Source of the DNA: Psammoneis japonica
Lineage: Eukaryota
Reading direction: 5' to 3'
Assembly (NCBI GenBank): GCA_008632985.1
Contig: QPGO01000026.1
Coordinates: 310,001 to 374,000 of the forward strand
DNA length: 64,000 nucleotides
Within the stretch, counting starts at the first letter, position 1, and each line of letters opens with the position of its first letter. The notes under the pieces are model-generated. The model ran no database searches and was not told the origin of the DNA. It worked only from the letters and a program-made list of their open reading frames with translations. The position numbers were made by a program, and so were the translations under genes. This document shows, piece after piece, positions 5,666 through 64,000 of this stretch.

Positions 5666-8177
5666 GGGTAATGCGACTTTACCGGTTTTGGTGGCAAGTA
5701 CAAACTCCTGTAGGATGCACATACGGAGGATTTGTACCATTCTTACGCAAAACAAAAAGTATGCTCTGCAGGCGGCTACTAACTCTCTCTCTAGACAGCA
5801 AGCAATGTCTAACCGACCGGCTGTTACCGGCAACACTACACCGACGCTGTCTTAGCTAGCACGAACCCGACTAAAGTATGATTACAATCATCCATAATGC
5901 AACATAAAGAACGTTTGTAGTTGCCATTTATTTGGCCAGTAGTGTCATTTTAATGGACTGACTTGTGCATGAAGTTTGCTTGAAATCCCCATGCAAGCCG
6001 GACGGGATTCTCATGCTTTCCGAGGCCACGTGCAATGCGATTGCTCTGCTTGAAAACATGAACTGCACATTCATCACCAGATCGAGTTGATGCAACAGCA
6101 CCAATTTGCTTGACTTGTTGAGAAGTGAACCGCCGGTCACTCCTTGCAAAATCAGGCTGCTGCACTGTCATTTGTCGGCCTTGACGCTAAGCCGCCATTG
6201 TCACCTGGCATCCTTTGTCTAGCACATTCAAAACCACTGCATCTGGAGCACCAATGCATTCTTTGACAAACCCCTCTTGGCAATCAAGCATTCCTGCATT
6301 CTCTTGACAGTCGGAGTCAGACATCGCCCCGGACCAAAGTTCCCAGTTCCCCTGCCATCCACAAGTTTGAAGGAAGACAGCACCCTTCGCAACGCATGCA
6401 TTGCAGCAGTGGGAAAACAATGCACGATTTATGTCAGCACACAATGAGTCTCCACATGGCACATTTGTGTCATCCCAAAATGTGGCTCGTCTGTCACCAA
6501 ACTTCTTTGCCCATTTTTCCAGTCGGAAAGCAATGCCCTCGTCGTACGATGCAAAACGTGGACACTGCAACAACAACGTTTGTTTGATTTTTCTGAGCTT
6601 GTGATCGATGATGCTGGCAATTCTTCGTCTGCTCTTCACTTTGTAAGTCACAATCAAAGCTTCCATTGTCATGTTTGTTCGACACCAAACCCACTCGAAG
6701 CAGCAGAACCACTCTTCAAACCACGTGAGAGACGATGTTCGGTCCATCATTTCATCAACCGAACCATCACACACAACCAAAAAACAAACAATGCCAACAA
6801 AAATAGAGAATCGCATCCAGTGCGAACTTTTACCTCTGAATCACTGAGAGCCTCTAGATGGACTGTTGGTGGTGGCTGCACCGGCGGAGCAGTCTTTTTC
6901 GACACGGGCGCACTTGGTCTCGCATTCGACACGGTCACCGTTGTTGTCAATTGCATTGCAAGGTTCGTACAGCCAAGCATCCACCAGCACAGCTAGTTCC
7001 TGCTTGGCTCTCATCAGCTCCAAACCATCTCTTGATTTCCTTCCAGACCTCTCATGAGCAAGTGACAGCAACAATCTTCCGCATCGGTCGTGATCTGTGG
7101 CAACGTCCTTTTTTGTCAAATCCGCAACATTCTTTGAACCAAGACCTGAAACACCGCCAAGCAGCGTCACAGCCAAGCACAAGTCCCAACAAAACACAAA
7201 ATCTAGGATCCAACTCCTTGTCAATGATGGGATGCTTTGCTTCTTGAATTTGCGAGTCTTTCAATTCATCAGAATCATTCACAACATGCAACAGCATGCT
7301 CTTAAATCCGCTTTCCACGGTGATGTCTTTTGTGGCGTTCTCCGATGGCACAAACGACACTGTCTGGAGAGCATGCTCTCCACAAATGAACAAAAAAACT
7401 GAATCATTTCTCAACACAATCTGGGCTTCACAACGGCGAACTAAGTTGCAAACAACCGAGTCCGCCTGGAAGTCTCATGTCATACAAAGAACCGAGGTCG
7501 ACAGCTGAGATTGAGACACTTCCTCGACGACACGCAAGCAAAAGTCTCGAGGAAGCTTCTTTGATCCCTGTGTTTCACAAGACTTTACTCCTGATTGGAG
7601 AATTTTCTGCTTTCCCAATAAATGCATCCGACACGCCTCCGCAACATCTTGCTTCCGGAGTTCTGAGGCAATCTCTGAGGTTTCAAGCCTTGCGTGGCAT
7701 GCTTTGGTGCGAGCCGTCTCCCTCTCCCCAGCCTGCTTGATTGATGCAACTTTTGCATGATGACGACTGTCAGGGTCAAATGCCATTGTTGCATGAATGC
7801 CGGTGTTCACAAGTGACGTGACAACCGACACAGTGCATGCAACAGCGTCACCGCCAGAGGAGCAAGGCCCCTGAGACCGATCCAACTCGAGTCGACAGCG
7901 ATGGTTGGTGGACCATCACATTGACAAACCTCCAACAGATGCTTTGCAGCATTTAGAATGTTTGCAATGGACAAGGAGGCGATGACATGGAGGACCGCAC
8001 CGCCGCCTTGAAAACCCATCGTGTTGATTGATGCACAGAAAAAAGTGCTGTTTTGAGAGCGTGCAACAAACATCAACACGAAACTCGGCACAAATCGTCG
8101 TGCAAAGCTGCACACGCAAAACCACGTGGAAATCCATTTTTGCACCACGCCACCAAAACTGAAAAATCGCATTGCCC
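5666..8177 (-). mobile_element. Degenerate PHIS-group (ISL2EU/PIF-Harbinger-like) DNA transposon with TIRs and AT flanks
   Basis: The left end AT|GGGTAATGCGACTTTACCGGTTTTGGTGGC matches the reverse complement of the right end, AT|GGGCAATGCGATTTTTCAGTTTTGGTGGC. An internal DDE_Tnp_4-like remnant is present. Confidence 0.7.
5950..6816 (-). pseudogene. Frameshifted Harbinger/ISL2EU-type DDE transposase remnant
   Basis: Motifs are WDDTNVP, KGAVFLQTCGW, WSGAMSD and NVLDKGC (family DKGY/F), followed in another frame by FTSQQV...VASTRSGDECAV. Confidence 0.65.
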
Positions 8178-8188
8178 ATGAGGTTGCC

Positions 8189-8768
8189 GCCGTGCGCACA
8201 TGGGCAAAAGGGTTCAGGGGGGGGAGCTGGGGCTTGCCAGTTCATTTTGTTTGTCGAGATGGGTTGTGAGCCACTGGGACGTGCCACGTGCTGCACTGCA
8301 GGTGGCACGGACCACGACGAGCGCATCGTGCTCATGCAGTGCACGGTGCACGCAAACCGCAATGAAGACGCCATGCATTGCAAGAAGATGCCATTGAACA
8401 AACACACCATGGAGGATGATGCGCCTGCTGCGGACGAGTCTTTTCTCTCCTGAGGAACTTGTTCATGAGAATCAAACAAGAGTTCTCAGACAAGATCACA
8501 CTTTCTCTGTTTCTTTCATGCAACAAAAGGCCTGCCCAGGTGCCTGGCTGGCCAGAGCAGACTGCAGTTTGACGTGTGCAACAGATCACACAATGATGGT
8601 TTGACCCACTGCAAGTGGGGCATTCCCTGCCCTGCCAGGTTTGACAGGCAGGAGCATGATGACACATTCCAAAAACTGGGCCCCCGCTTTTTTTGTCGCC
8701 CCCCCCCCCCCCCCCTTTTCATCGTGAAGTGCTCCCCCCCAAACCCTTTTTGCCCATGCGCACACGGC
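8189..8768. mobile_element. Non-autonomous TIR element (MITE-like), copy A
   Basis: Imperfect ~40 bp TIRs (GCCGTGCGCACATGGGCAAAAGGGTT..GGGGGGGAGC / GCTCCCCCCC..AACCCTTTTTGCCCATGCGCACACGGC). The internal sequence recurs at 35977-36500. Confidence 0.75.
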
Positions 8769-11249
8769 CTCTCATGCTTTGCACACGAGCCTCGTCACTG
8801 AAAACAACATCCCAATCAGGGCACAACAACAACATCACAAGAGCTGCATTGATGGGTGACAGAGGGCTGCTTGTTTAAGTCACAGGCAGAGCAATGACCT
8901 GTTTTGTTGCTCTGTTGCTTTTGTCTGTGTGAGAGAGGTCTTTGTGGGGGTGTGGGGGCTGGTGTTTTGGTGCTCAGCTTGGTCTTGCCGTGGGTTTTCC
9001 CAAAATTTCCAAGGGCTGCCATGCTCTTCCATGGGAAGCATGAACTCCTGGGGAACCACCACAAATGCCACTTCATCACACACACAATTCAGACATGCAA
9101 GCAAATTCTTCACACACTGGTGGCTGCCTCCTCCTTGCGAATTGAACAGCGGCCTCTGTTCCAGCTCCAGGTGATGCACATGGGCTCAATGCCCATCACT
9201 GGCCCATTTTTGCATTTGGCACAATGAACTCACTCAAAATCTTTTTTTTTTCCAAAATCAAAGGGTGAGTGCACACAAAACTTTCACTTTTTTGTGTGCA
9301 CTCACCTTTTGATTTTTGAAACGACAAAATTTGAAGGAGAGTTCAGCATGCCAAAGTGCACAAAAAGTCTGCCTTTCGCCTGATGGATTGCACATCACCT
9401 GGAGCTGGAGCAGGCTGCAGCAATGCTTGCTCTTCCAATTGAAGCATCTCATTTGGAGAACAAAGCGGGTCACTCAAATCGCACTTGTGTCATGCAGTCA
9501 TCTCTGGAGTGAAGGCCAAGGCAAAACAGAGCTGCTGTGTCACATGTCATGGCTGACAAAAACATGGTGGAATGACTGGCAATGTTGTTCTTCCCTCTGA
9601 CCTCACTCATGTGCAGAATGCTGTGAATCATTTTTTTTCCTTTTTGCATCATGTTGTCACAAATGCAAACCAAGGGCTCCAGAGCAAAGGCCAAGGCAAA
9701 AACAAAGCCACACACGAGCAACACATCAATGTGGGTGTGATTTGGTGGCAAAGTTTGTTCTTCTCTTGCTCTGCTTTGTTGTGTGTTGATGTGTCAATGC
9801 ATCAGTTGCAGTTGTTGCCCAGAGTGGATGGTCATGGGATTAAAAGCACACCCATCTAAAAAGAGTTGCTTCACATTGTGCTGCAACCCACTCAAAACCC
9901 TCCTCCCCTGAGCCCTTTCAGGCCTTCCTTCCCACAAATTTGCCCTCATTTCCCAGGTTTTTGGCCATTTTGGGGGAATCCCCAAACAAGTGAAACCAAA
10001 CCAAGTTGTGGCAAAAGTGCAGCAAACCCAGCCAACTCAATTTTGGTCTCTGTCTTGTGCTGTGCACTGGGATTTGTGGCATTTGATGTGTTCTTTGAAT
10101 GAGCTGATTGAAGACAATTGCTGTGCTGCACCTGCCCACCACAAATGCTCAGGTTTGAAATTGTTGCTCTGAAGGATGGGTTGAAATCTGTGTGGTTGGC
10201 AAGCCAAGTGCACGTGGGAGATGCAAACAGAAAAATCATGGCACTGTTCAGAGGTGACTTCCATTTTTCTAAAGAGAGACAGCACTGCTTAAAAAGCTGC
10301 AAGGGTGCCATGGAGAGGAGAGAATCAAGAAATGCCTTGTGAAACTGAGGGTGATTCTTCATGTCATGGCAAGTGGAACACGAGAGACAAGATGTGGCAC
10401 AAGCAAGGCACCACATTCTGGATTCATTGGATCTCAGCTCTTGATGGTTGTTGATGCACAGTCCTTCTTTGTTGACAAATTTTGAGCTCTGCCCCCCTCT
10501 TCTTCCAAACAATGCAGCAGCTCCAACAGGCACTCAACCTGACTTTCTCATCAAGGCAAAGGGTTAGGGCCATGGCACAACATTTTGTGTCAAGTCCTCA
10601 TGCCAAACATCTCCATGCTGCACACAACTGAAGTTGGCAAGAGGCAACCCCCTTGATCAAAATTGTTGCTCTGCTGTGTGCGGCAGCGATGCAGGCCACC
10701 AACTTCTGAACACCAAGCTCCATTTGTTGTGCTTTTTTTCTGTTTGCAAAAAACTCAGGGGATTGGAGACATCATCCCCCCAGTCTTTTGAATGACAGTG
10801 CAGCTGCTCACATCATGTGTGCAGCACATGCTCAAAATTGTGAGTCCAAACCAGCAGCACATTTTTGACCTGAGCAAAGTCAAAGGGTTGCTGGCAAACC
10901 ACTTCCCACACTTTGCCCCCCCCCCCCTGCCAGTGGCTCAGGCACCTGTTTGACGGACATGCAAGAGCCAATGTCCATCACAACCACACAAGAGAGAGAT
11001 GCTTGCAGGCCCAGAATTGCCACTCATGTGACATGTGCTGCTGCAAAGCACAGCCAAGCAGAGGAGAGCTTTTCCTGGTGGGACAACTTGCCAAATTGCT
11101 TCTGGGCTCCTGAAGGCACCACAAAAAGTGCTGGCTGGCTTTGAATGACAAGCGCGCCACACACAAAAGCAGCACACACACAAGCAAAAAGAGTGGTGAT
11201 CCACCAAAGCAGGCAGGGGCAGGCCACAGGCAGCTGGCTGATGCAATGT

Positions 11250-11410
11250 CAAAGGTGAGACATGATGTGGATGACAAGGGTGCCAGCAGCAACAGTTTCA
11301 GCAACAAGTGGCACGGTGCACTGCAGTGCACTCAAGCCCATGGAGGCACCATCATCTTTGTGTGAATTTGTGATGCATTGTGTCATGTGATTGGATGAAA
11401 CATTCAAGGC
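11250..11410 (+). repeat. ~150 bp dispersed repeat, copy 1 (copy 2 at 25832-25980)
   Basis: Both copies share CAAAGGTGA..CATGATG..GACAAGGGTGCCAGCA..CAACAAGTGGCAC..CTCAAGCCC..GGAGGCACCA..GGATGAAAC..TTCAAGG. Confidence 0.75.
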
Positions 11411-12314
11411 CTTCTCAAGCACACAATTTCTGAGCCTCCATCTTGGCTCATTTTTCTCCTTGAAAATGTCAAACATTTCTTGGAGTTTGTCAACAAATGA
11501 TTCGAATGGCACAACACGCTCACTCTTGCAATGAAGAGCAGCCTCCAAGCACTCAGCCTGAGAAACATGACAAGAGGAATTTCCTTCTCCCTGGCAGTGG
11601 TCACATGGTGCTTGAAAATCCATGCGTCCATTCTGCTTGCTCTTGTTTCAACTGCTGTTCACTTGGGGTCCCAGCAGCAAGAGACTCAGTCAACAAGTGG
11701 GCAGCATGAGCATCCCCTTCAACTGCAGGACCTTGGAGTGGTGCACATGTGACACACTTCTGAACAAAAGTGTTGTGACCATTGGGTTCAGGTGCATTGA
11801 TTGGACAAATGCGGTGCACCAATGGTGCACCAGACAGTCTCCCAGCACAACACCGAGCATGTTCGTCAATCCGGCACACCACTTCACCCAGCTCTTCTTG
11901 CTCTCAAACATCCTGGGTGCGGTGCCTCTTTGCTGAGAGATTCAGCAGTGGTCTTGGTCTGAGAGCAAATCTCAGTGCAACCAAGTGCCGTCTGAAGTGC
12001 AGCATGAAAAGTTGCCCAATCGAGCCTCAAGAGAGCAGGGCTCTTGCTCACACGACCAAAGTCTTGCACCCAGTGGATGAGAGCCTTGAGACAATGACTG
12101 TGGGCTGATCCAAAATGAATGTGCCCTTCAGCAACCATCCTCCTTGTGCATGATGATGCAAGAGAGTCGACATCCTCCTCCTTGAGGTCTTCTGGCAGGT
12201 CGTCAAAAGACGCGAAGAAGTCTGCCACAAGCAAAGCTCGCTGAGCTGGATCAACAAATGCAATCCAATCCAATCAAGAGCAGTCTCAATCAGATCCAGA
12301 GGAGCAACCACCAT
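11410..12314 (-). pseudogene. Degenerate gag-like ORF of a Ty1/Copia (diatom CoDi-like) LTR retrotransposon
   Basis: Frameshifted peptides LKALIHWVQDFGR, DHCQGEGN and LHCKSERVVPFESFVDKLQEMFDIF resemble diatom Copia gag, recognised from memory only. No pol or clear LTR pair was seen. Confidence 0.5.
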
Positions 12315-13238
12315 GGCAACACCCATGCCAGTGGATGAACAGAGTTGTGCAAGAAAACACACAACAAAATGACACTTCTCGTTTCGTGCTGACAACAACA
12401 CATGGCCATTGGAAGCGCATTGAGACTGGCCTTGTCTCCTCACTGCTTGTGCACCATGCACTGATGCCAGGCAATGACAATCATCACACACCCTCTGATC
12501 AACTGGCATTCATTGTCATGACCCTGCCATCATGGTGCGATTGTTGCTTTTCCGTTGTTCGTGATTTTTCGTCAAACCAAACTCGAGTCGCGATTTGGCT
12601 CTGACAAAGCAAGCAAATCTAGTTGCCAGCCAGAAGGCTCAGCCACTCACAGTCTTAGTGCGACAATGCAAGTGCAACCAACAAGATGCTTCTAGGCCTG
12701 TTGCAACTGCTTCAGATGCAACAAGTGTGACCATGTGATGGTCATCGCAAAGTTCCCTCCGACCACGTCACAGGTCACTGCACTGCTGACTTCAACTTAC
12801 GGAGCACACAAGGCAATCCGTGACACTGCGGATTCACTCGAAGTTGCTCAAACTCACGAGGAGCGAGGAGAAACGAGAGGCAGCAATTCTGTCGAAGCCC
12901 GCAGGGCAACAAAATGTTTGTCATGTTAAGGCGAACAAGCAACGACAACACTTTGTGCAAACAAAAAAGCAGAAAAAATCAAGATCCATGTCACACGCAC
13001 TCTTCAAACGCCTCACAAAAACCAAGCGACTCTGCACAGTGGAAGGAACAAAACAGGAACAATGTGGAATTGGGTCTTGCCATGTCTGCTTTTCATTTTT
13101 TGCTTTTTTGGTCATGTTGAGGCGACGGCGGAAGTTGCTCGTGAAGACATTCGCAAGGAAGACATCTCATTGGCTTCGCGGCATTATGGCATGTCCCATC
13201 TATGAAACAACAAAACGACTCCCGATGCAGCAACTCTT

Positions 13239-14166
13239 GTGGAAATGCAAGCCGACGCAATGTCGAACCGTCAACTGGTGGAAGGTCGTCTTTCATGCTA
13301 CAAGATCACTGAAGTTTCCAAGGTTTTGGCTTCATCTGGATTCACGCTAATGCCGATGGGTGGGAAGCTGTACTTTGGGCACAGAGATGAGCTTTTGGTG
13401 CATGATCCCGCGACCGGCGCGACGGAAATGGCAAATGGCATTGGCGGTCAGAGATTGGAGGGATGTCCATTGCATTTGACGCCCATGGATGGAAAGCTGC
13501 ACTTCCTGGCAGACGATGGAATGCATGGAAGAGAGCTTTGGGTTCACAATCCACTGAATCGCACAACGGAAATGACAAAGGACATCCATCCCGGCGGCGT
13601 GTCTTCAAATCCAACGCGCTTGACCCCAATGGATGGAAAGCTGCATTTCACAGCCAATGATGGAAAGCGTGGAGAGGAGCTGTGGGTGCATGATGCCATG
13701 AGTCACAAAACAAAAATTGCAGAGGACATGCATCCCGGCGGTGGTGGTCGCTGTTCTTCGTCTGGGGCGGCATTTTTGACACCTGTGAATGGAAAGCTGT
13801 GCTTCATGGCTTGTGGTGGAACGCATGGAATTCAGCTTTGGGTTCATGATCCAAAGAGTGACACAACACAAATGGTTTCAGACAATCCAAAGAGTGATGC
13901 AATGGAGTGGCTTTGTTCTCCAAGGGGGATGGCAGCAATGGGTGGAAAGCTTCACTTTAGTGCGCATGACAGAACGCGTCATGAGCTTTGGATGCACAAC
14001 CCCGTGAGTGACAGGTCGGAAATGATGAAAGAGATCAAACCATCAGATTTAACACCAATGGATGGAAAGCTGTGCTTCAGTGTTTGTTGCAAAGGACTTT
14101 GGGTTCACGATCCATTGGGTCACGCAACGGAATTGGCAAAGGACATCCATTCTGTTCAATCACCCC
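13239..14166 (+). pseudogene. ELWxxDGT-like beta-propeller repeat gene, 5' part (interrupted by the LINE)
   Basis: About six repeats of LTPMDGKL(Y/H/C)[13 protein letters not shown]. The frame continues at 22013 once the LINE and one TSD are removed. Confidence 0.75.
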
Positions 14167-17100
14167 GTGCTTTTCTACGCAAGCACACATTGGTCATTTC
14201 CACATGGAATTCTACGAGCTTTTTGTGCCAAGCAGCCGTCACCATGACGACCCCTCCTCCACCGCAGGCCAGCCCTGCCGGTGTTCCTCCCCCGGATCCT
14301 CCCCCCATTGTGGATCACACCCCATCGACTCCAACAAGAACTGGGTCCAAAAAGTCCAACGCGATTGGCCCTGACGAAATCACGATCCGTTTTGAGTTAA
14401 CGTCGGCAGAGGACAATGCCTCTGCGGTGCCAGCTGTGGGTCACACCACCATCCTCCATGCCCTACAACAAAAAGCATCTCAAGATCCTTTGACCCACAA
14501 AATCTCCATTGTGTCGAATCGAGGAATTGACATTCCCGACATCAACGTCGTCGAATGGAATTCTGGACTGACTCATTCGCAACACTTCGTGGTTCACCGC
14601 GTCGGAGGTGCCCGCCGCCGCCCTCCTGCTTACATCATCGCCCACCGTATCCGCACTGCTTTGACTCTTGCCGAAATCAGGAACATTCCCTTTGTTCACA
14701 AAGTTCTCAAAGATGACGGCATTTACATGCGACATCATGAATGGGACGAAACTGCCATCGATTTATCTCGTGTTGCCCTTGTTCTCGATTTCGCGCCAAA
14801 GCATTACCCTGCGGACATTGTTCAGAAACGACTCATGTCAATTCCACCACCCCGCAGTCGCTCCAAGGTTCCCTTCCGGTAGATCATTCAATCGGCAACA
14901 TCCCCACTCGACAAGGACATCAAAGCAACTTTCTACACAATCGAGACTCCTCGAGACCGAGCCAAAGATGTGATTGCTGCTTTAATGGAAGCACTGAAGG
15001 ATCATCCTTTAGCGGTTGTCTTTACTCGCTGGCGGTGCACCCAACCAGAACAATTCGACAAAGCAGTTCGGAAGCAACGTAAAACCGCAGCGACACTCCA
15101 CGTGATTCCATTGTTGCACTGCACTGATGGAATGCATTTTTACATGTCTGACAAAATTACAACGATCCCCGGAGTAGTGGTCGTCGTTCCAGCAAAGAAG
15201 AAAACCTTGATTCCCCGTTGCAACATTCTCGTGGACAAACTGTACTTTCACAAAGCCAAAGAACAAATCACTGAAAACTTGTCGGAATGGACAAACGATC
15301 TTCCGGACAATGAGCTGCCGTTCATTCACCAACCACGTCCTGTGATTCCGGGTCTCAACGACGACATCTCCGACACAGCTCAGTCCATCACCTCGGCGAC
15401 CATCCAAAGCTGGAAGTCGTCAGATGTTTCTGACATCTAGCCTTCTGACTCCCATGCTGCCAAACCTGCTCCACAGCCATCCCCCCCACCGGTTCCACGA
15501 AACGTTGGGATTCACGGAGGTTTTCAGACCTTTGCCCAAGTGCTGGAAAGTTCCACAAGCGCGGCAGTGCCAAGAGCAACCCCAACTTCGGAGTTGACAT
15601 CTCGGACTAACGACATCGCAGAACTCAAACAAATGGTCTTACAGCACCATCAGGAACAGGATCGTTGGTTAGAGCAGCTGGAACAGCAACATCAGGCATC
15701 TCTTGAGCAACTTGCATTAAAGTTTCAATCTCTGATTCAAGAAACAATTTCAACCATGTCTCAAGGTGCAGCATCTCCTCAGAGGAAGAAACCTGCACTT
15801 TCCGCTCCGGCAGGGTCTTCATCTCATCATCCTCCCAACGATGCCACTGTGGACGACGCCGAACAAGATGACTCAGTTTTTTCCCAGGGCAGGACCAGTC
15901 GTCTCACCTGCCTGGCTCCCATGACGCATGCGCCAGTCGCACTTTTCAGTCTTTCTTTGAGAAAGCACGGCATCACACCCGGGGGTGACACCCCTTCGGC
16001 AGCACTCAATCCCGCTGCTCAGCAGTGGTCCCAGATGTTGTCAGGCAGAAGTTTTGCGCCTCTCTCCAGCACTGTTGATTGTGCCACTTTGCAACAGAAT
16101 GACCCGATCGGAGATCAGTTAGGCCCTGAATCTCCTGAACATGCACGATTGCACGCGTTCAACGCAAACGGATGCGCTTGTGACCTCCAAGGCGGCGACT
16201 TCAATGCACATTCTCAAGTCGCTGTGGAAATGCAGGCAGATGTCATTGGAACATCCAAAACTTGCTTGGACACTGCGCAGTTCAAAGTCCAACAGAGTTG
16301 CCCCAATGCAGTTCGCCAGTCTCTTCATCACGGCCGTTTGACGTTGTCATCCTCCAAGACCACCTTTTCCACTCCTTACAAACCAGGGGGTGCCGCCACA
16401 TTTTCATGCAATTCCCTGTCTTCATGTCACCGCACCCAACATGAGGATCCCCTTGGAAGATGGTCCATTCAAATTTTCGATGGACGCCATGGACGGCAAG
16501 TGATGTTTGTGTCTTGTTGTCGAGTTTGCTCCAACTCTTCGGTTGCAGGAAAAACAACAGCCTGTGCTCAACAGGTGGCACTGCTGTGACAACAAGGGCG
16601 AGCGAACCTAGACCCAAGATGATCCTTTTGTGCTGACCTGACTCGGATCTTAGAGAGGTTTCTCAATGACACCGACCGAGAGGTTGTTCTGTTCGGAGAC
16701 TTCAACACAGACTTCCGAACTGATAACGACACCCTCGCTTCCATGGCGCAACGGTTCAATGTGTCTGATGCAATGCACTGCCATCAAGAAGACCTTGAAT
16801 TTTCCACTCACATGAGAGGATCTCGTTGGTTAGACTTCGTTTTGGCAACCCCAGGGGCTTTGGCAGCCTCTAGAAAGTGTGGATGCGAATCTTTCGGATG
16901 TCGCACATCTTCGGATCACCGAGCGTATTTTGTCGATTTTGATGCAGTGGCATTGTTTGGCAACCCCACCGTCGACCTGCCACGTGCCGAACACCGTGAC
17001 CTGCAAGCAAATTCTCCCAAACACATCACCACATGCCCAGAGACAATGGCTTCACTGTTGTGCAGCCGAAACGTTACGGCGCAAACCGAAGCCTTGATCC

Positions 17101-35936: not shown

Positions 35937-35976
35937 CAGTGGCAGGTGTCGCATGCCATGTCATGGGTGGGCTCAT

Positions 35977-40888: not shown

Positions 40889-41037
40889 TGATGATGAGAG
40901 TACCGTAGAGCCTGGCTGACACCTGACACGCGTGAAACTTCTCGACGACCGACGACAGCAATCGATGATTTTCTTCGACGCCATACAAAACAACTAACGA
41001 TACGGCGTTATTATTTGGCAAAGAAAGGTGCACTAGT

Positions 41038-48320: not shown

Positions 48321-48527
48321 GCCACCATGCAGATGCAACATCAAGCAGAGAACAGACATCTGATGGATGCCACAGTCGGAGAGAGTGCAACCATCCTCCA
48401 ACTGCTTTCTGGCAAAACCCAAATGCTGTGCATCCATGGGGATTCCCTCCACATCCTGAATGCCCAACTTCACATTGCAGATTGTGTTGCTGGGTGCAAC
48501 CGCAAGCTTGGTTGTCTTTCCCATCAA
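48321..48527 (-). pseudogene. Decayed ubiquitin/ubiquitin-like domain
   Basis: [67 protein letters not shown] aligns without gaps to ubiquitin [67 protein letters not shown]. Confidence 0.85.
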
Positions 48528-53741: not shown

Positions 53742-55111
53742 AGTGAAATGAGGCCAAATTGTTTTGTTGCCAACAGATTTGTCTTCTTTTTGTGCCACAC
53801 TGCAGCCTGTGACAAGCATTTTCATTGTTGTTGCCAATGACACAGACTGCACAAAATGCTGCAATTCTTGTTGTGTCATTCAATTTTCCTGGAGGTTCAA
53901 GAAATTGGCCGGGCTGTCATGATCGCTGAAAGCCATTGTTTTGGCTGCCAGCTGGCTCCAATTTCATCTGCTTGTTTTGCTTGCAAGCAATGAATGTTGT
54001 GATTTCCACAAAATGTCAATGACATTGAATGAAGCACAAAACTTTTGTTTGTTTTTTGTGCAAAAAGGGGCATGTGTGCACCACCCAAGTCTGGAACAAG
54101 TCAAATGCACCCAGATCAGGCAAAAAGCTGTTGGTTCTAGAGCTTTCATTTGTGAAGTGATCGTCAATGGCCATGTTGGGAATAGATTGTTGGCACAAAG
54201 CCAGACAAGGCAACTGGCCAGGGTTTTGTTTCAGTGTGTGGGAATCACTGGTGAGTGGCACGTGCTGCAATGTTTCACAAGCGTCTGTGCACGGATGTCT
54301 CACCACAGCTGCTCTGTTGCTCTGTGAGCAAATCCTCTGAGTGACATGGACAGTGTGTGCTGTGAGAGCATTGTGAAAGGCGTGGCAACCTTGCCCTTCT
54401 CAAGCTCTCCAGGAAGAAGCATGGTGAAGAAGAGAGTTGGGGGAAGTTCACGGCTGACACAGCCTGGTTGGCTGTGGTGGCTCAGGAGAGGTTCCAAGCC
54501 AGGACTGAAAACTGGTTGCATTGCTTGACAAGACAAAATTCCAATTTTGTGGAAAAGCTGCTCCCAACATGGGACGTCTGTGGAATTGCTGGTTTTGGTG
54601 CATTTCTGCAAAAGTGACAGTTTGCAGGTTCAAGACATTTCCCCAGTGCACTGTAAAACTGCCAGTTGAAAAACTGGGAGACACTTGCATTTTGGGCCCA
54701 GTGTGCGCGCGAAGGTTTCCAAGTTTGATGCAGGGAAAGGCCAAGACTCTGGGGCTCAGCTGTGTCCTCTGCCACTCGCCCCCCATGGTTGCCCAGAAAT
54801 CCTTGCCCCCCTCTTTCAGTTTTCATTTTATTGTCGGAAAGAAAATAAAGGAGAAGGGTGAGGTGTTTGTCACAAGTCTATTTACACTCAGTTAGACTTT
54901 CTTGTCCGCAAAGCAAAGACGATTGGCCACTATGTTCTTTTGGGAATCGCCGCCATGGCCAGCAAAACGGAAGTAAAAAAGCCTAAAGAACTCAAGCCCA
55001 ACAGGTGGAGGGTACAGATCAAGAAGAGGTGGTCTTATACTCTTTTAAACATAGCACACCCGCCTGCAATACTTTTCATTCAAAGACTTGGGGACGTCTC
55101 CACTGTACGTG

Positions 55112-56182
55112 TCACCGCAACTTTTCCTCGTACAGTGAGAACATTTGCTTCAATAAATCTGTCATTAAAGAGGTCAAAGGGGACGGGTCTCCGCCATCCC
55201 ACGCCGCCAATGCGCCACGATAGGTCTCCCCCTTTTCGACTGGAATGATGATGGGTGGATAACCACATCTCATTAGGACCAAGTTTGAGAGTAAACGCGC
55301 CGTGCGACCATTACCATCCAAAAAAGGGTGGATACGAACGAACACATAATGGACTGTGCTTGACAACAACAAAGGGTGATCAATGTCCTGTCTCTCGCCA
55401 ATCCAAGAAACTAACTTCATCATCAGCTCTTCAATTTCATCAGGCATCGCAAGAAGTAGTTTTCGGTTACCAACCGAAACAAACTCCTCTTCTCCTCGAT
55501 ACTTCCCCGCGGCTGAGTGATTTTGCAGTACAAGCTCGTGGATGCACAAGATGTCGTCAATGCTGACGGCGGCATTTGTCGCAACGAGCTCCCGAACTTT
55601 CTGAAAAGCCTTGGCGTGGCCAACAATGTCTTCCATTTCCCGCAGCGTCTTGCCTTCACCGCCGATTAATCCAGACAGAATCATTGTTGTTTCGGACCTA
55701 GAGATCCGGTTCCCTTCTATTGCGTTTGAGTTGTATGTCATTTCTATGTTGAGACTCTCGTAGAGTTCTTTCAGCTTCAACCCATTTTCACGACGCAGAC
55801 GTGCAATCTCCTCATTCTTTGATGTCAGGTCGTCCAAAACGCCACGGTCGGTCTTGGCAGTGAGGTCAAAGAGACTGGAGTATTTGATGAAGGTCTCGCC
55901 TGATGGATCACTCCCCCCATTGTAGACTCGAGCCTTTTCCTTCATCCACCATTGAGTCATTTCTTGCCTTTCCTGCTGCGCTTTCTGAAAGTCTTGCAAT
56001 TTCTTCTCAATGTCCGCCCGTTCTCGTTCATAAGCCCGACGGACATCCTGTCTTTGCTGATGAATCAGGCCGCAGAAAGAGACAAAAACAGCTACCCATC
56101 CCTTCAAGTCCAGCAGATTGTATTGCGATAAGAACAAAGTGACAAGGCAGAAGGCGGCGAGAATGGACGTAAAGTATTCCAT
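55112..56182 (-). CDS. Fic-domain AMPylase (FICD/HYPE-like) with hydrophobic N-terminus
   Basis: Canonical HPFLDGNGRTARL motif, upstream inhibitory-helix motif SNAIEGN, and two N-terminal hydrophobic segments. It is an intact single-exon ORF. Confidence 0.9.
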   Translation of the reverse strand: MEYFTSILAAFCLVTLFLSQYNLLDLKGWVAVFVSFCGLIHQQRQDVRRAYERERADIEKKLQDFQKAQQERQEMTQWWMKEKARVYNGGSDPSGETFIKYSSLFDLTAKTDRGVLDDLTSKNEEIARLRRENGLKLKELYESLNIEMTYNSNAIEGNRISRSETTMILSGLIGGEGKTLREMEDIVGHAKAFQKVRELVATNAAVSIDDILCIHELVLQNHSAAGKYRGEEEFVSVGNRKLLLAMPDEIEELMMKLVSWIGERQDIDHPLLLSSTVHYVFVRIHPFLDGNGRTARLLSNLVLMRCGYPPIIIPVEKGETYRGALAAWDGGDPSPLTSLMTDLLKQMFSLYEEKLR

Positions 56183-58078
56183 TTGTGTTGTGGGTGGTAT
56201 TTTTTCTTCGTAAGATCAATTGTGATGAAGGTAGCTTGCATTGTCGAATGTGCTCATGGTGCCACTTGTCGCCATCGTGAACCGTGGAGAATTCTGCCGC
56301 CCGCGAGCGCGCACAACATCCGGCGGGTTCGAGAGAGACAATAAACAATAAGCCATGTGCAGGGGTTATGAGTCCCAAAAAAGGGTTTGGGCCGATTTCT
56401 GGTACAAAACTCACGTTGAAAATTTACGTAGAATATCTTGTTCGTCGTGCTTTTCCTGTGCTTTGCGAAAAATAGGCCACGACCTCAAAGGAATCGATTT
56501 CAGTCATAATGGTTGACACTTTGCGTACTTACTTTTTGATGACAAACACGACGATGTCCACCGTTCGGCGAAATTCCATCATTGGAAAATGTTCACCATA
56601 GTGGGACCGCAGTGAAGTGTTGATCGAATTTCTGAAAATGGAATTTTGAAGTGTCCATGCACAGAATCGTGTTGTTTGTGTAAAAGTCATCATGTAAAGT
56701 GTCAATGGTTTCATTGGAAAACGATTCCTTGAGGCGTCGGTGGAGCCGGGGAAGCACGGTAGAAGCACGAGAAAAAAAAAAAATCGGCCCAACCCTGATT
56801 TTTGTCATTTTTTCTGCGTAAAATTCTACGTGATTTTTGTGCCAGTGCACATGATGAAATGTCAATGATGAACAAGGATTTTCGATCCCTTCTGCCATTG
56901 ATGTCATCAAGCCAATGCCACTTTAATGAAGGCACAAACAAATTTGTGTTCCACCCTTTTCGCAAACTTTGATCTATCGGCATTTTCAATGCGAGTGCGC
57001 GATGACAACAATGAAGCATGCTTGCATGTGTCATGGCCACAAGCTGTGAGGCGCACCGTCACATTTGGATTGAACTCGGGGATCTTGGTGTCGAAAGCAG
57101 CCATTTGTTTGACATTTGCGATTTTTCATCGCCCACAAATTGGGGTTTCAACTGAGTCGAGTTGATGTTGGACGTGTTTCAAAGCACTGCGTTTGATGAA
57201 ACAATTGAGGGCTCTGGGCTTGTGGCATTTTATGCCATGGAGACTCAAAACAGTGAATGGGCAAACAATCAAGCCAGTGATCAGGTTTGCCAACATTTCC
57301 AAAAATGTGACAACAAAAATTGCATCACTCAACAACCAACAACCCCTCAAGAGAAAGAAACAAGAAAAGTGACTCCTCTTTGCACTTGAGTTAAAAGAGA
57401 CAACAATGCACAACAAATGTTCAAGAAGGACAAGAAGCTCTTGAATGTATGAAACAAGAAGAGAGTCAATGAACCACTCTTGTTTTGAACCTCTTGTGCC
57501 CTGTTCTCTCTTCCGTGGTGGTTGGTTGAAAGGTTGGTGGTGGTTTTTTGTGAGACTTGCAGCTTGATGCATGTTGATGCATGAAACATGGCCCATGTGT
57601 GGTGTCACCTTTGGAACATGCCACTTGTGGAGCTTGAGCAGACAGCTCTCTGTGCTCAAGCTTTTTCCACCAAATGCTTCGTCAAAGTCCAGAGATGCTG
57701 CCCCATCCCACCCAGCCATTGAAAAAAACAGTTCTTGCAAAATGCTGTCACCTGTTTCCCTCTTCCTCTGCAGAGCAGCTCTCTTGGTGACAGTGCCACC
57801 CACATGCCAGACTGTGCTCAAGAATGTTTTCCAACCTGCCAGCCAAGACACCCAACTCAGGGCTCTGTGTGGGCTCGCATCTCTCTCAAGACAAGCTGAT
57901 GTTTCTGGCACTGGAGGCAATGCTGAGCCCTCCTTCCTGTTTGACTTCCCAGGGGTGTGCCCAGACCACCTGCATGCAAGCCGAGCCACAAGAGTTGCTG
58001 TTTTTGCCAGCTTTGTTGGCAGGATGTGCCAAGGTTGCTCTGGCCATGTGTGTTGCCTGGCTGGCGCTGGCACCACAA

Positions 58079-58305
58079 TGCAAAGACAGGTGTGACAGCA
58101 GCACTTTCTGCTGTCAGCAAAGAGTGTGAGCTGGCTGGACTGCTCAACCCCACACTTCACAGTTCCTTGGCAGTCATTCCAAATCAAGTGCCAGCTTGGG
58201 ACCAACTGCACGTGGCTGGTTGCAATGCAAAGACAGCTGTGACAGCACTTTGTGACAACAAGAGAGTGTGAGCTGGCTGGGCTCCTGACCCCACACTTCA
58301 CAGCC
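58079..58305. repeat. Local duplication of an ~80 bp motif
   Basis: TGCAAAGACAG.TGTGACAGCA...GAGTGTGAGCTGGCTGG...ACCCCACACTTCACAG occurs at about 58080 and 58226. Confidence 0.7.
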
Positions 58306-59318
58306 CCTCAGCACTGGCTCCCAATCAAATGCCATCTTGGCGCCAATGGCCATGAAGCCATTGTTGCAGATCCCTGTGCCTGCCCCCTCACACAACATGT
58401 GTGGCCTTTGCAAGATGGGCCCCTGGCCAACTGCAGACTCCTCACGGCTTGCAACAAGCCACCACAACACAGAGCATTGTGGGGTGAATGCAGCACAGCT
58501 TGAGCAAGCAAGCCATGCAGGGAGCACCCAGAGCTGGCTGCTGTCCTGGGGCTCCATTCAAAGCTGAGCTGGGCTGCTTGGCTCCTTGGTGTGCGGCACA
58601 TGCTTGCTTGGCATTGCATTGTCACCAAGCAGAGCCACATGGCATGTGCCCACCATTTCTTGTGCCCGCAACAGTGGCCCCTGGCCACAAACAAGCCAAC
58701 AAAAAGTTGGGCCTGCTTTTGTGGTTGAAGAGTGAAGAAACTGTGAGTGAGGTTGGGTTCAAGAGTTTGTTGTGGCAATGCCAATTGAGAGCAACCAAAG
58801 AGAGTCGCCACCAAAAATGACTGTGTGAAGCGTCTCTCTTGCTCCTTTCTCAAGAGGAGCTTGTGTGCATGATGCAGGGTCTGAAGCAAGCACCAGTCAA
58901 GACAACAATTTTTTCCCTCTCTGTTCCACCCAAAACACAGCCTTTGAGTCAATGTGGTGCTCCTTCAACAATTGACGCACGCACTGGGAGGAGCAGCTGG
59001 AGCCAGGGCAGCTGGCCTGGCAGGGCTTGGCTCACAACCAAGCTGGGCTTCTCAGCTTGGCAGCACACACTCAGACTCACATTGTCACCCTCCTGCAGCT
59101 GCAATGTGCCCCACTCTTTGCACCTGCAGCAACCACCCTGGACCAAAAGAAGCCAGCGCAACTCTGGCCCTGGTTGCATGGTCAAATTGTGTGTGTGCTC
59201 AACTGTTGGAATCCCCTCCTTTTTCCCTTTTCCTTTGACCAGCCACGAACATGAAAAAATTGCCAGCTTGGGAGGTCTGCGGGAGTGCAAGAGAGAGAGA
59301 GTTGGGGCCCTGTGCAGG

Positions 59319-61446
59319 GGTGTTTCTTTTCCCTTCCACAACAACCTGCCGGGTTCCTCTCAACATCCACGCAAAATCGCACACAAAATGAGTGCTAGAT
59401 TTTGAGATGCAGCCACCACAAGATCAAAAACAATGGCATTGAAGCCGGTCCGGTTGCTCACATTTTTCATCACATTGCTCTCTCTGACAGGGCTTGCTTT
59501 TGGAAAGGCATCCCAAATGACTCAAAGAGATGCTGTCGAGTGCATTGTTGATCACGCTCAGCTGATGGCAGGCACGGCGAGCCTCGCCGCAGTGCTGAAA
59601 CATGGCGCAAGGACATTTCACAGCACCGAACGTCAACTCCAACGTTGGCACAAGCACTGTCTCTTTCATGGAGAACTGCCATTTGACACCACTTGAAAAT
59701 GTGTTTTTGGTGTGTGAAGCACACCTCCATCACCATGGAGAACTTGAGGTGGTGACCAGGCAGATTGACGGGAAGAATTGCTGTCAGTGACTCCCCGGCC
59801 TGCCAGCATGCATGGCAGTGAAGGACGTGTTCCAGCCGTGTGCAAAAACAACATTTGCGTGATTTTTGCATGGTCTCTCACTTGCAAACAAAATTTCACC
59901 ACCAAAAGCACAGATTTGCACAAAATTGAATGTTTTGCAACACTGACAAGACTTGCGTCAGTGTTGCAATGTCATTTTTTTTTGTGCCATCCATGTTTTT
60001 CATTGCAACAAATGAATCACAACACAACGGACAATTTTTGGCAAAACCATTGCCGTCATTTGAGTGTTGGTCAAACAATTTTTGCACAAGACCTTCTGGC
60101 AGGTGTTCCACCTCTGCAACCAAAAATCTGCATCAAATGCACCAACGTGCAATCAGCAATGAGTCTGCTGAGGGAGTTCATTGCACATGTCCCATGAGGA
60201 AAATTGAATGCCAACTAAAAAACTGTTCACATGTTCACACTCTAAACACCTGTGAAAGCCCATCCGCCCAAGCATTTTACATTGAAATGCTCCACACACG
60301 AGAGACACACAATTCATGTTCAAAATGGGTTGTTGTTTTGTGTGTTGCCTGGGGCTGGAACACGTCGAAGGGCTTTCAAAAAGGTGGGGTGCCATGGACA
60401 GAGATCAGAGCATTCAAGGTTGGTGGTTGGGGTGTCATCATGAGTCGCACTGCATTGTCTTGAGTGAACATCCAATCCAGAGTGGCATCGTCTCGAGCAG
60501 TGGACATCAAATCTTGAATGGTTTTGTCTCAAGCAGCAAACATTGTCTTAGTGCCATCATCTCAAGTGTTGGCAGCTTGCAGCAGCAAATGTGCAGTCTC
60601 AAGTGGTGTTGCCCAGCTGCTGCAGTCTCTCAAGTGGCATCATCTCAAGCAGCAGAGTGCATCTGGTCTCGAGCAGAATCTGGAGTGGCGATCTTACAGT
60701 TGCTCTAAAGTGTGCCTTCTTGTCCCACCCACAGTGCTTCTTCAGTTTGGGATGTGTTGAAGCATGCTTGATCATGTCATGAAAAAACCTTGTCAATGTG
60801 AAAGTCGCCATTCCATCCAGCTCCTTGCAACACTCTTTAGCCACCGTCTGGATTTTCTCAAACCACTTTGCATCTGAATCAGCAACCTCCACCTTCATTG
60901 TTGTTTGGCTGGAATTGGTCTTCCTCTTGGTGCATCTCATGAATGTGAAAGCACCATTGGGGAGCTTGTTGTGAGTGGAGCAACCATTGGCTTCAATGTG
61001 TGCAGTGATGAAGGGGCTGTTTCCCTTGGTGAATGATGCAGTTGTGTCAAACGGACAACTCAGCTTCAAACTTTCCAAGTTTGGAGAGTTTTGGCTTTGG
61101 TTCTTTGGATGTTCCCTTTTTGCTTGGAACAAACATGGTTTTGTCAAAGTGAATGACAAGTTTTGCAGGTTGCGGCCCCTTGGTTTCTCAAGGGCTTTCT
61201 GAGTCCTCTTCAGAATCAGACAAGTCCAAGTTGATGGCAGAACACTTTGCATCTTGACTGGGTGCATGACTGTTGTGTTCCAGCTGGTTGGTTGTGGGCT
61301 GCTTGGTGGCGGTTCTTTGCCATGGTTGACAGTGGCATGTTTTGATCCCCAGTTGTAAATTCCAGTGTTCATTTTGTGTGTGATTCTGCATGGCTGTTGA
61401 GGGGAACCTGGAAGGTTGTTGAAGGGAAAAAAAAAAAGAAGACACC
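59319..61446. mobile_element. ~2.1 kb element bounded by ~85 bp imperfect inverted repeats
   Basis: GGTGT.TCTTTT..CCCTTC.ACAACCT.CC.GGTTCC.CTCAACA.CCA.GCA.AATC.CACACAAAATGA at 59319 and its reverse complement ending at 61446. No recognisable coding content. Confidence 0.6.
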
Positions 61447-61469
61447 TCTCTCTCTCTCTTGAACCCTGT

Positions 61470-62627
61470 GACATTTCCACCGCAAACAGCACTGGAAACC
61501 GTTCCACAAATAACTTTGCAGCACAATCATGAGGATGGCAAAATTGAGACACTTGCTCAGGATGAAGCAGTCACTGAGGCATTTGAACAAAACGGTGTCA
61601 AAGGGGATTGCTCCACTTCCTCAAGGACATCAAAAGCACTTGGAAGAAAAAGCATGGTTTCCATGAAGAAGGCTCGGGACTGCTTCGTGACTCTGTGCCA
61701 CTTGTCAACCAAGGGCAGCTGGATTTTGAAGTCAAGAAGCTGGTGGCAAAGCTCACCAACCATGTGCATGGCAGGTGGTGCAACAAGCCCAACAAAGCCA
61801 AGAAGGAGGCTCAAAGGAGGATGAGTTGCCCGTCATCCAAGACCTTGGCAGACACAGAAACAACGGCGCCTGAACCCTGTGATCTTTTGGCAAGAATCAA
61901 GAGCATGGTGAGATTCATTGCCAATGTCAAGTGTGCCAAGTCAGGGGAGCCACTCATTTCAAAGGGAACTTGCAGAGTTTGCTTCATCTTTGTCAAGCAC
62001 TCCAAAAAAAAGTGCATGAGTGACAAACCTGGCTTTGACTGCTGCTGCATCTAAGCCAGTCCATCAAGTGGAAAGACAACCCTGCATTGCATTCGTGGCA
62101 TGTCACAACTGGAGGGCTTTCACAAGCACCTCAAAGAGGCTCTGGTGGCACGCCATTTGTCCCCCTTGCCAGCAGTTTGCCTTCTGGCAAAATTTGTGCA
62201 CCGATGGAATCATGATCAAGCAGCAGAAAGGGGGCTTGCACCTTCCCAGTGCACACAATTCTACAATCACAAAACAGCCCACAACATGCAAACTGCAAAC
62301 TGTGAGCATGGAGCGCATCAGTGCCAAGGCAACCTTGCAAACAAGAGCGACTTTGGACATGCTAGAGGAGGTGCCTGTGCACACCAATTGAGGCCGGTGC
62401 ATGGCAATGACCAAAATGAAAAGGATTCTGAATCACCTGTCACAACAGTGGAGAGCACCATGTCTGAAGCTTTGGAGTTCCTTGTGGAGCAAGACGGAAG
62501 GGATGGCATCCCTGTCACTCAAGTCACCAGCCATGAAGTTGAATTGTTTCAGGAGGTGCTTCTAAGATTTGCAAAAGCATGCCAAAACAACAGAGGCAGC
62601 ATGGTTTGCATGACTTTGCACACATGA
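61470..62627 (+). pseudogene. Degenerate transposase-like remnant, family uncertain
   Basis: Frameshifted peptides include RGMSQLEGFHKHL...FVHRWNHD, which resembles an RGTxxLEGFH...RWN motif I associate with eukaryotic putative transposases. This is from memory and unverified. Confidence 0.35.
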
Positions 62628-64000
62628 ACACATGTTGGGATGATCTGGCAGGCACAAATGGCAAAAACCACTTGGCAAGCATTGTCAGATGTTCCAGAGG
62701 ACAGCACCCATTCTCTTGGCACATTGCAAAAAGGTTGAAAGACAGAAAATCAAAGCTCGCACTGTGCAGCAAACCACCGCCACTTGTGACTGCACTGGTG
62801 CAGTGAGAACACAATCATTGTGAACAGGGAGACAGAAAGAAACCAAGAAGACATGCAAGAAAGAGCTTGTGGACAATCCTTCCATGCCCTCTTTCAAACC
62901 CACCAGATGGGTCTGAGCCATTTGGAGTTGCAGGAGAGTGCCAACCTGTGAATTTGCCACTGGCAAATGTGAGCAGACTGGCTCAAAATGCAGCCATGTT
63001 GGAATTGGCAGCTGACAGGTGACACTTCCAAATGCCTGATCCTCCACACTGCAAATGAGATTCACTCTGAACAAGCATTCATTGCTCTGAACAAAAAACA
63101 AACACAGCATTTTGCTTCATTTGCAAGTGCAGAAAAATTGGTCAGAGCATCGCTCTGTTCAAGCCAGAGTCAGAGTGACATGCTTTGTTTCAAGACAATC
63201 ACAGCAACATAAAAAGTGTTGCTCTGTTTGACTGAAATCAGAGGATGCCTCTGACCAAGTCCCTTTTTTCAGAGCCAATGCTCCAAGTGATTTCAGCCTC
63301 ATGGGACCTTGATGAAAATGCAATGTGCAAATTGTCATTGGCACACCAACACAACACACATGCACATGCACTCATCCACATCATGTGTGACATGGGCATT
63401 TGCATTGCAACATGCAGAAAGGCACCAAAATTGCAACGTTCAAGATTTGCAGAGCTGTGCCAAATGACGAGTGCATGAAAACACATTGTTTCTCCCCACA
63501 AACAAGTCAAGGGGAGCGCAAATGAGTGCTCCAAACACTTTTTTGTGTGAAATGTTCAAGTTTCCATCATCTGGGAGAGGGTTCAAGTTGGCAAGGTGAT
63601 TTTGGCAATTTGTGCAGAAAACACACCAAGTTCCACACAACACAAAATCTGGCCCAAATTTGCACCTGCACCACCTTGAGAATGGCGCAGGGTGGGTGGA
63701 TGTTCAAAAACTTCGAGCGCGGACAGATGCAAATGTGCTACAAACTTGGTCATTCATTTGACATTGTGACAAATGCATCCATTGATCAAACTCTTGTGCT
63801 GCGGAGCTCCCACGCAGAACTGTGCGGGCCCAACATCACATGGAGTCCCACCTGTTGCTGGAGAGCATGTTCCCACCAAAGAGTTTGAATGAAAAACAAT
63901 GGCAAACTCTGGCATTTAACATGGAAATCTGCTGGAGTCAGAAGTAAAACACAGTGCAATGCTCTTTTGTGCTGCAGCAAAGGTGGCCATTTCCGGGTTC

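Follow-up and report, generated by a model that had tools for sequence, protein, structure and literature searches.

A stretch of the Psammoneis japonica genome (assembly GCA_008632985.1, contig QPGO01000026.1, positions 310,001 to 374,000; hereafter the window) raises the question of how silent DNA can lose one dinucleotide, TpA, almost completely next to genes that keep it. We tallied dinucleotide observed/expected ratios (o/e) in 1-kb bins of the window, which comprises 64,000 bases without a single N. TpA o/e was at most 0.25 in 45 of the 64 bins, and ten of the depleted bins reached 0.00–0.02; the o/e of CA and TG taken together was 1.31–2.00 in the 45 bins. The depleted bins form four blocks (6–26, 31–37, 43–55 and 57–64 kb), while the remaining 19 bins, which contain recognisable genes, have a TpA o/e of 0.36–0.76. 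Silent DNA rich in repeats, whose TA steps have almost all been turned into TG or CA, makes up roughly two thirds of the window. The explanation that we prefer, with a probability of about 0.75, is a regionally targeted hypermutation of TpA to TpG or CpA in silent DNA, of the kind reported from Bigelowiella natans, with a slower decay of methylated CpG on top of it. The initial annotation, made from the letters alone, had drawn attention to the deficit, and its counts were reproduced: TA is missing from 8881–9840, occurs 22 times in 45200–54200 (about 21 had been given) and 16 times in 781–900.

The erased domains and the gene regions that served as controls, to which no strand applies, are the following (X1 and X2 are sequencing runs that are introduced below):

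5955–13200: TpA-erased domain 1; 6–7.6 kb is partly erased with CpG at 0.72–0.75, and beyond 7.6 kb hardly any TA or CpG is left.
23000–26030: TpA- and CpG-erased stretch at the end of domain 1, with TA o/e of 0.00–0.09 and CpG of 0.18–0.52; TA-free over 23661–25351.
26031–31036: gene region that served as a control, normal in its TA and CpG, with a ferroportin gene on the minus strand (29136–30998) and colinear X1 and X2 contigs.
31040–36327: TpA-erased domain 2, which holds a 241-bp satellite and a very high-copy segment at 32.7–34.0 kb.
36328–42900: control gene region with a cNMP-binding/ankyrin gene that contains a probable 77-bp intron (38531–38607), and other genes.
43000–54830: TpA-erased domain 3, the most extreme one, where CpG o/e falls as low as 0.05 and that of CA+TG rises to 2.0; TA-free over 47940–50153.
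56975–64000: TpA-erased domain 4, which continues past the end of the window.

Pooled counts indicate what has taken the place of the lost TA. In the deep domains (31,205 bp) we counted 86 TA (o/e 0.04) and 473 CG (0.27), with CA and TG at 1.77 and 1.87. The corresponding values for genic DNA (19,003 bp) are 731 TA (0.54), 1040 CG (1.00), 1.18 and 1.22, and those for 13.2–23 kb (9,801 bp), which is largely occupied by a long interspersed nuclear element (LINE), are 96 TA (0.16), 510 CG (0.80), 1.43 and 1.41. CpG, on which the initial annotation touched only briefly, is depleted too in most of the TpA-poor domains. The other twelve dinucleotides are near-constant between the classes; the o/e of AA and TT, for example, is 1.25 and 1.27 in deep and 1.19 and 1.22 in genic DNA. 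When all pyrimidine-purine (YpR) steps are summed from the pooled counts, genic, deep and LINE DNA contain 243, 245 and 239.5 of them per kb. Per kb, deep DNA has 35.7 fewer TA, 39.5 fewer CG and 77.2 more CA+TG than genic DNA. A constant YpR sum together with a loss of TA and CG that matches the gain of CA and TG is what transitions within the YpR class predict. The scale of the loss is also apparent from uninterrupted runs: 36 TA-free runs exceed 300 bp and the longest, at 47940–50153, measures 2,214 bp, compared with a maximum of 186 bp in genic DNA and 312 bp across 449 kb of related LINE loci. At the TA density of genic DNA, a run of 2,214 bp has a probability of e^-85.

The transition between erased and normal DNA is sharp. 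The edges (5951/6188, 25904/26031, 31036, 36328, 54654/54829 and approximately 56975) are sharp to within tens of bases, and at the start of domain 1 the final normal TA lies at 5951 and the next TA at 6188. Further inside domain 1, TA-free runs cover 7955–8876, 8877–9841 and 10566–12620. The sequence that abuts domain 1 (5508–5951) is TA-rich, with one TA per 5–17 bases, and switches composition within a few bases near 5955. An 84-bp tandem repeat of 2.4 copies (36824–37021, in the open reading frame (ORF) 36603–37232) is located at the edge of domain 2, and several contigs join across its units. Domains 3 and 4 are separated by a short gene island with a Fic/DOC-domain gene on the minus strand (55112–56215, E 1.3e-19).

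Given that the erasure is limited to silent and probably modified DNA, it has to be considered whether modified bases gave rise to an artefact in base calling or in the assembly. Sequence data from a public run of the same organism (X1: 657,387 contigs, 141 Mb, mean record of about 214 bases, unique word depth of ~55), which perhaps derives from the assembly's own sample, reproduce the erased single-copy DNA: X1 contigs differ from the window at 5 positions in the 3,172 bases of 40776–43947 and at 5 positions in the 776 bases of 45225–46000. In total, 2,440 contig pieces showed 408 transitions and 99 transversions relative to the window. Among the 40 places listed, there are four (33220, 34512, 43881 and 43885) at which a TG or CA of the window corresponds to TA in other copies or alleles, and five at which these have CG. 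A base-calling artefact is unlikely, since copies disagree in the outcome at a given site, one reading TG and the other CA. The second way in which the composition could be explained without any mutational process is that the sequences are natively TA-free and are kept so by selection. This was addressed with the LINE and with the gene into which it is inserted:

13350–14120, plus strand: 5' part of an ELWxxDGT-repeat gene (ELW gene), cut by the LINE (NCBIfam ELWxxDGT_rpt, E 3.1e-36).
14150–21950, plus strand: LINE that interrupts the ELW gene and comprises an endonuclease, a reverse transcriptase and an RNase H-like part.
21985–22977, plus strand: 3' part of the ELW-repeat/thrombospondin type 3 gene (ELWxxDGT_rpt, E 2.4e-25; TSP_3, E 6.4e-10).

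The LINE combines an apurinic-type endonuclease and a reverse transcriptase in one long ORF, as is the case for a non-LTR (long terminal repeat) retrotransposon, and 49 relatives possess ORFs of 1,100–2,133 amino acids. Its endonuclease matches Exo_endo_phos_2 at 16623–17186 with an E-value of 2.6e-5 and 24.5 bits, below the Pfam cut-off of 27.4. For the reverse transcriptase we found 41 homologues with at most 43% identity, one of which carries PF00078, and Pfam RVT_1 had no match in the window's copy of the LINE; the RNase H-like part was labelled by eye. Members of this LINE clade with ORFs of up to 2,133 amino acids are common in contigs from marine, freshwater and other metagenomes, and RVT_1 is recorded in 1 of the 41 homologues.

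We compared the LINE with 80 related loci from metagenome contigs, obtained with scan patterns that favour intact copies. All 80 are normal in composition (TA o/e 0.39–0.85, CG 0.74–1.13). The LINE in the window contains 10.6 TA per kb in comparison to 44.6 per kb in the relatives, at a CpG o/e of 0.80. Poverty in TA is thus not native to this LINE family; the comparison says nothing on whether other hosts have the process. With the composition of the relatives being normal, and with conserved tyrosines including those of the catalytic box replaced as described below, we give very little credence to native composition under selection, and equally little to an artefact. The LINE represents an intermediate stage of erasure.

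For an analysis at the level of residues, the ORF in the window, with X at its five in-frame stops, was aligned with the 49 relatives that have an ORF of at least 1,100 amino acids, the 31 shorter ones being omitted. Columns conserved to at least 70% were regarded as conserved, and the window keeps 295 of these 433 residues. Tyrosine stands out: only 2 of 25 conserved tyrosines are kept (Fisher p = 1.6e-10), and the window has Cys at 10 of the other positions, His at 6, Phe at 5, and Leu and Trp at one each. Asp (27/28), Trp (17/19), Lys (14/15) and Arg (22/32) are kept to a much larger extent. When the comparison is restricted to the reverse transcriptase, Tyr is kept in 2 of 9 columns and replaced by Cys in four, by His in two and by Asp in one; the replaced tyrosines of the LINE include those of the catalytic box. 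Codons for I, M, T, N and K necessarily start with A, and 81 conserved columns hold one of these residues. In 50 of them the initial A is intact, and it follows C (23), G (15) or A (12) but never T (p = 1.3e-6). In 13 columns the A is now G, with T preceding it in 11 (p = 1e-5). Every T|A junction has therefore been altered, becoming T|G or, without a change of residue, C|A. The dependence on a 5' T is strict and AA is left alone.

This specificity bears on two mechanisms by which A could be turned into G. Error-prone repair synthesis by a polymerase of the Pol eta type, acting in heterochromatin, is known for a bias of WA>WG to which A>G at TA belongs, and it was among the candidates of the initial annotation. 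However, AA and TT are undepleted in the deep domains, and the near-absolute requirement for T that follows from the 50 retained adenines is at odds with a WA preference, which makes this mechanism very unlikely. Alternatively, double-stranded repeat RNA could be edited from A to I and the change fixed by reverse transcription; ADAR-type enzymes favour a 5' U according to work cited in a preprint (bioRxiv 10.64898/2026.01.13.699255). But both strands of the LINE are changed, as can be seen from ten Tyr>Cys next to six Tyr>His replacements, and each kb holds CA and TG in balance. Furthermore, satellites and the flanks of the host gene, which were not retrotransposed, are erased as well, and AA is unchanged. 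Fixation of edited RNA is hence scarcely believable as the source of the pattern.

The five in-frame stops of the LINE are all TGA. Three of them are located at Arg columns, one of which is invariant in 49 of 49 relatives, and the stops at Arg columns fit CGA>TGA changes via CpG decay. Relative to the related loci, 0.24 of the TA and approximately 0.84 of the CpG have survived in the LINE.

The broken ELW gene on both sides of the LINE leads to the same result. Its 5' part is TA-free over 13372–13958 yet contains 23 CpG, which means that TA is gone while CpG is normal. The repeat units of this family contain an aromatic position in a G-x-L-(Y/F)-F strand, and in 543 units of 120 homologues this position is occupied by Y in 238, F in 205, H in 4 and C in 8 cases. 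In the window, the seven matched units have H (5) or C (2); an eighth unit, identified by eye, keeps Y. GKLHF units are present at 22186 and 22330 in the 3' part. The initial annotation had proposed that Tyr codons were lost to Cys and His, and this is borne out where the ancestor can be inferred, as in the LINE and in the ELW gene. Among the 120 homologues listed, those named by source are all bacterial and the others are named by family only, which hints at a bacterial ancestry of the gene.

Further evidence on the direction of change comes from repeats and from a pseudogene:

8201–8741, plus strand: copy 1 of an unclassified repeat, wholly TA-free.
35968–36501, plus strand: copy 2 of this repeat; its first 360 bp are erased and its last 170 bp, past 36328, retain TA.
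31401–32760, no strand assigned: 241-bp satellite in domain 2.
52330–53741, plus strand: satellite of ~460–480 bp with 3 monomers, used for a comparison of monomers.
48228–48611, minus strand: ubiquitin-like pseudogene inside domain 3 (Pfam ubiquitin, E 2.8e-13).

A self-comparison of the window yielded 21 repeat pairs. In the alignment of the unclassified repeat, the 8 TA of copy 2 are opposite 4 TG and 4 CA in copy 1, and the reverse was found in no case. The edge at 36328 falls inside copy 2, and homology runs on for 170 bp beyond it. The pair 40752–40888/43805–43938 belongs to a border zone where TA persists and was uninformative. Satellite monomers differ by 88 transitions and 20 transversions. 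The satellite at 52330–53741 displays 17 double differences of the CA versus TG type in addition to 27 single YpR differences, and 75 doubles were counted in the other satellite. Such an excess of doubles would be expected from an ancestral TA or CG that was mutated separately in each monomer after amplification. The translation of the ubiquitin-like pseudogene ends with ...LSDC...LHLHGG, which we take to reflect Tyr>Cys and Arg>His/Cys changes with respect to canonical ubiquitin.

Taken together, pooled counts, satellites, the repeat pair, the LINE and the ELW gene agree with the original proposal that the TA deficit arose from TA>TG and TA>CA transitions on both strands, and the confinement of the loss to silent, repeat-rich DNA of unrelated sequence types was also supported. 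Some of the labels given to these sequences were not confirmed. A Pfam scan of 276 ORFs of at least 72 amino acids from the depleted domains returned the ubiquitin domain and the LINE endonuclease as matches and found no Copia, Tc1, ISL2EU/Harbinger or viral domain, so that the Copia gag, Tc1 and ISL2EU elements of the initial annotation were not recovered. An ORF on the minus strand in the partly erased part of domain 1 (6190–6840) contains the motif DKGC at 6208–6219. This could presumably be a DKGY box of the Harbinger/ISL2EU type with Tyr>Cys; Pfam gives no transposase for this ORF and lends the assignment no support.

How does the loss of TA relate to that of CpG? In 13 bins CpG o/e is at least 0.72 yet TA o/e is at most 0.25, and none of the bins with a CpG o/e of at most 0.34 has a TA o/e above 0.13. 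TA is thus lost before CpG, at a rate ratio of about 8 that results from the survival of TA (0.24) and CpG (~0.84) in the LINE. The flanking bases have a strong influence. In the LINE, as compared to the 80 relatives, survival was 0–0.09 for ATAN, 0.21 for GTAC, 0.29 for CTAG, 0.33 for CTAC, 0.53 for TTAA, 0.60 for CTAA and 0.63 for GTAA. These values can be described by roughly independent factors for the half-sites (A ~0.12, G 0.46, C 0.54, T 0.73), and the same order is seen in the deep domains. ATA half-sites are erased first and TTA half-sites last.

The joint decay of the two dinucleotides could also have a different origin. A modification of the maintenance type, placed on the palindromic TpA, could mark silent DNA and be mutagenic in itself, causing T>C or A>G by mispairing or faulty repair. 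Hydroxymethyl-uracil or a further modified T would be candidates for such a mark, as would N6-methyladenine on both strands, and the process would be the TpA counterpart of the decay of 5-methylcytosine (5mC) in CpG. In favour of this idea, among the YpR steps TA and CG alone are self-complementary, and both decay in the same domains and symmetrically on the two strands; in addition, the edges are sharp and chromatin-like, one of them lying within a repeat copy. On the other hand, no such modification is on record for the organism, and a loss of TA that is ~8 times as fast as CpG decay is rapid for a side reaction that happens spontaneously. Activity in B. natans is limited to some of the lines, and this fits a regulated enzyme better than a standing mark. 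We consider a mutagenic TpA mark to be doubtful.

The next question is how the erased regions are chosen. The initial annotation spoke of a repeat-directed process, and a trigger by homology as in the repeat-induced point mutation (RIP) of fungi, where duplicated DNA is recognised by pairing and then mutated, would agree with the observation that most of the erased DNA is or was repetitive, with satellites and a depth of up to 24,393 in comparison to ~55. A lead may be seen in the DNMT4 enzymes of diatoms, which are related to RID and whose function is unknown (PMC9998398), although this lead concerns C>T and not A>G. Several observations disagree with pairing. DNA is erased at about single-copy depth at 45344–46000 (depth 61) and 34672–35338 (depth 100), where it has to be kept in mind that old repeats diverged beyond 85% go uncounted in this measure. 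The last 170 bp of repeat copy 2 are spared despite continuing homology, and the single-copy flanks of the host gene around the LINE are erased. Moreover, the target in B. natans is single copy. Erasure at single-copy depth and an edge inside a repeat copy speak against a repeat-directed process in the sense of RIP, and a homology trigger is improbable in our view. More probably, the regions are selected by their chromatin or silencing state than by the pairing of repeats. The highest depths belong to 32671–34004, a very high-copy repeat with a summed contig (word) depth of 14,487–24,393 in X1 against ~55 for unique sequence.

Our literature search on TpA erasure found a single description; apart from it, papers on the RIP of fungi and on unconnected subjects came up. 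Mettrop et al. (bioRxiv 10.64898/2026.01.13.699255, 14 Apr 2026) report TpA>TpG/CpA hypermutation in mutation-accumulation lines of Bigelowiella natans, so that the earlier statement that no described system matches the pattern has been overtaken. In the preprint, 231 of 302 nuclear point mutations in 15 lines fell into a 186-kb giant-virus and a 25-kb virophage region, which mutated in some lines only and at a rate of ~6e-7 per site and generation, about 1000 times the background; 230 of the 231 were A>G or T>C, all at TpA. The same source describes 124 clusters of TpA-poor, CpA+TpG-rich windows in the B. natans genome and proposes an ADAT2 homologue as the enzyme (bioRxiv 10.64898/2026.01.13.699255).

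The two cases are alike in that TpA alone is hit, that it becomes TpG or CpA depending on the strand, and that discrete regions are affected with genes being spared. The footprint, clustered 1-kb windows in which TpA is scarce and CpA+TpG abundant, is also the same, and the preprint names the Pfam family that the LINE matches (Exo_endo_phos_2). They differ in extent, as 45 of 64 bins of our window have a Rho_TpA of at most 0.25 and many of 0.00, while the nucleocytoplasmic large DNA virus (NCLDV) insert of B. natans has 0.45 and the 5% cut-off of that genome is 0.43; 70% of the window is far below this cut-off. They also differ in their targets: in the window these are satellites, pseudogenes, a host gene that has been broken and a LINE, which is foreign DNA in a broad sense, and in B. 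natans integrated viral DNA (bioRxiv 10.64898/2026.01.13.699255). In the window, CpG decays in the same domains as TpA, and a flank hierarchy of ATA >> GTA, CTA > TTA is seen.

The organisms themselves are dissimilar, the genome of B. natans being very intron-rich. The window is intron-poor, with one intron in ~6.5 kb of RNA-like contigs, of which there are four of 1.4–1.9 kb that are colinear on genes. The intron belongs to the cNMP-binding/ankyrin gene, where a contig of run X2, which is listed as 'DNA?', skips the 77 bases 38531–38607; X2 is probably an RNA run because its contig omits these bases within a gene, and the gap is then probably an intron. For the ferroportin gene, the best relative shows 50% identity, the collection searched covering NCBI and JGI proteins among others. 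Its nearest Atlas cluster is most frequent in diatoms (Bacillariophyta), which is a weak lead, and the La/exonuclease protein had no Atlas match above 0.82. The kind of process is thus already known, from one preprint, and the window probably represents a second lineage.

Other known processes share individual features with the erasure. Like it, fungal RIP is an irreversible, context-dependent transition hypermutation of silent or selfish DNA that leaves aberrant blocks with sharp edges beside normal genes. Its direction is opposite, though, since RIP converts CpA to TpA and raises TpA, whereas TpA is erased (0.04) and CpA/TpG reach an o/e of 1.8–2.0 in the window. Decay of 5mC in CpG explains why CpG is lost, to an o/e as low as 0.05, and why CA/TG is gained in part, but cannot remove TpA. 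Deaminases such as TadA/ADAT2-ADAT3 and ADAR, with antiviral hypermutation of the APOBEC type as an analogy, are similar in that A>I>G with a preference for a 5' U or T would give TA>TG on either strand, and in the idea that foreign nucleic acid is restricted by deamination; ADAR, however, takes a 5' A as well, and AA is untouched in the window. We know of no natural enzyme that deaminates adenine in chromosomal DNA on such a scale.

In the process that we favour, regionally targeted hypermutation of TpA, silent DNA such as transposon remnants, satellites, pseudogenes and the gene broken by the LINE would be targeted region by region, and TpA would be converted to TpG or CpA on either strand. 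The chemistry could be an enzymatic deamination of adenine in DNA, with A>I being read as G, by an ADAT2/TadA-like or another deaminase. We regard deamination of adenine on both strands as the most likely chemistry, at roughly even odds. A slower decay of methylated CpG to TpG/CpA would be superimposed, so that all self-complementary YpR steps would end as CA or TG. The outcome would be an irreversible inactivation in which Tyr becomes Cys or His, TAA and TAG vanish, and signals of the TATA, AATAAA and TA-target-site type are lost.

Several points weigh against this explanation. Both the chemistry and the targeting are what we infer from the pattern of change. The proven targets in B. natans are viral (giant virus and virophage), and no viral domain was present in the 276 ORFs. 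At most CA/TG sites of the deep domains, TA and CG ancestry are indistinguishable; therefore, direct proof of TA ancestry comes from the LINE, the ELW gene, the ubiquitin-like gene and one repeat pair. The preference for ATA has no obvious match in the context of the tRNA anticodon loop on which ADAT/TadA enzymes act. Tyrosine codons of the A|TAY type gave 5 Cys and 1 His, and the trinucleotide balance, used to assign the mutated base of the ATA half-site, is confounded by the composition of the family. Finally, the support by X1 is not fully independent if this run was the source of the assembly.

The erasure has practical consequences for annotation. Erased domains defeat homology-based repeat annotation, and ORFs are inflated in them because TAA and TAG are gone: over six frames we counted 1,574 TGA, 90 TAA and 51 TAG. 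In relation to the text of the B. natans preprint, the window adds the end state with a TA o/e of 0.00, one dated insertion that has reached an intermediate stage, the precedence of TA loss over CpG decay, the flank hierarchy, edges that run through a repeat copy, and non-viral as well as host targets. If our reading is correct, a second organism would make targeted A>G hypermutation a general and powerful genome defence or heterochromatin-linked mutator, the A-side counterpart of RIP and APOBEC, and its enzyme would naturally edit adenine in DNA, with a specificity for one dinucleotide. It is conceivable, albeit with the odds leaning somewhat against so broad a claim, that TpA erasure, far from being peculiar to one chlorarachniophyte, is a widespread eukaryotic genome defence which in this second, unrelated and intron-poor lineage is the main long-term fate of silent DNA, outpaces 5mCpG decay ~8-fold, spreads with chromatin state and not by homology, and bears in its preference for ATA a fingerprint by which the DNA adenine deaminase or TpA-modifying enzyme may be recognised.

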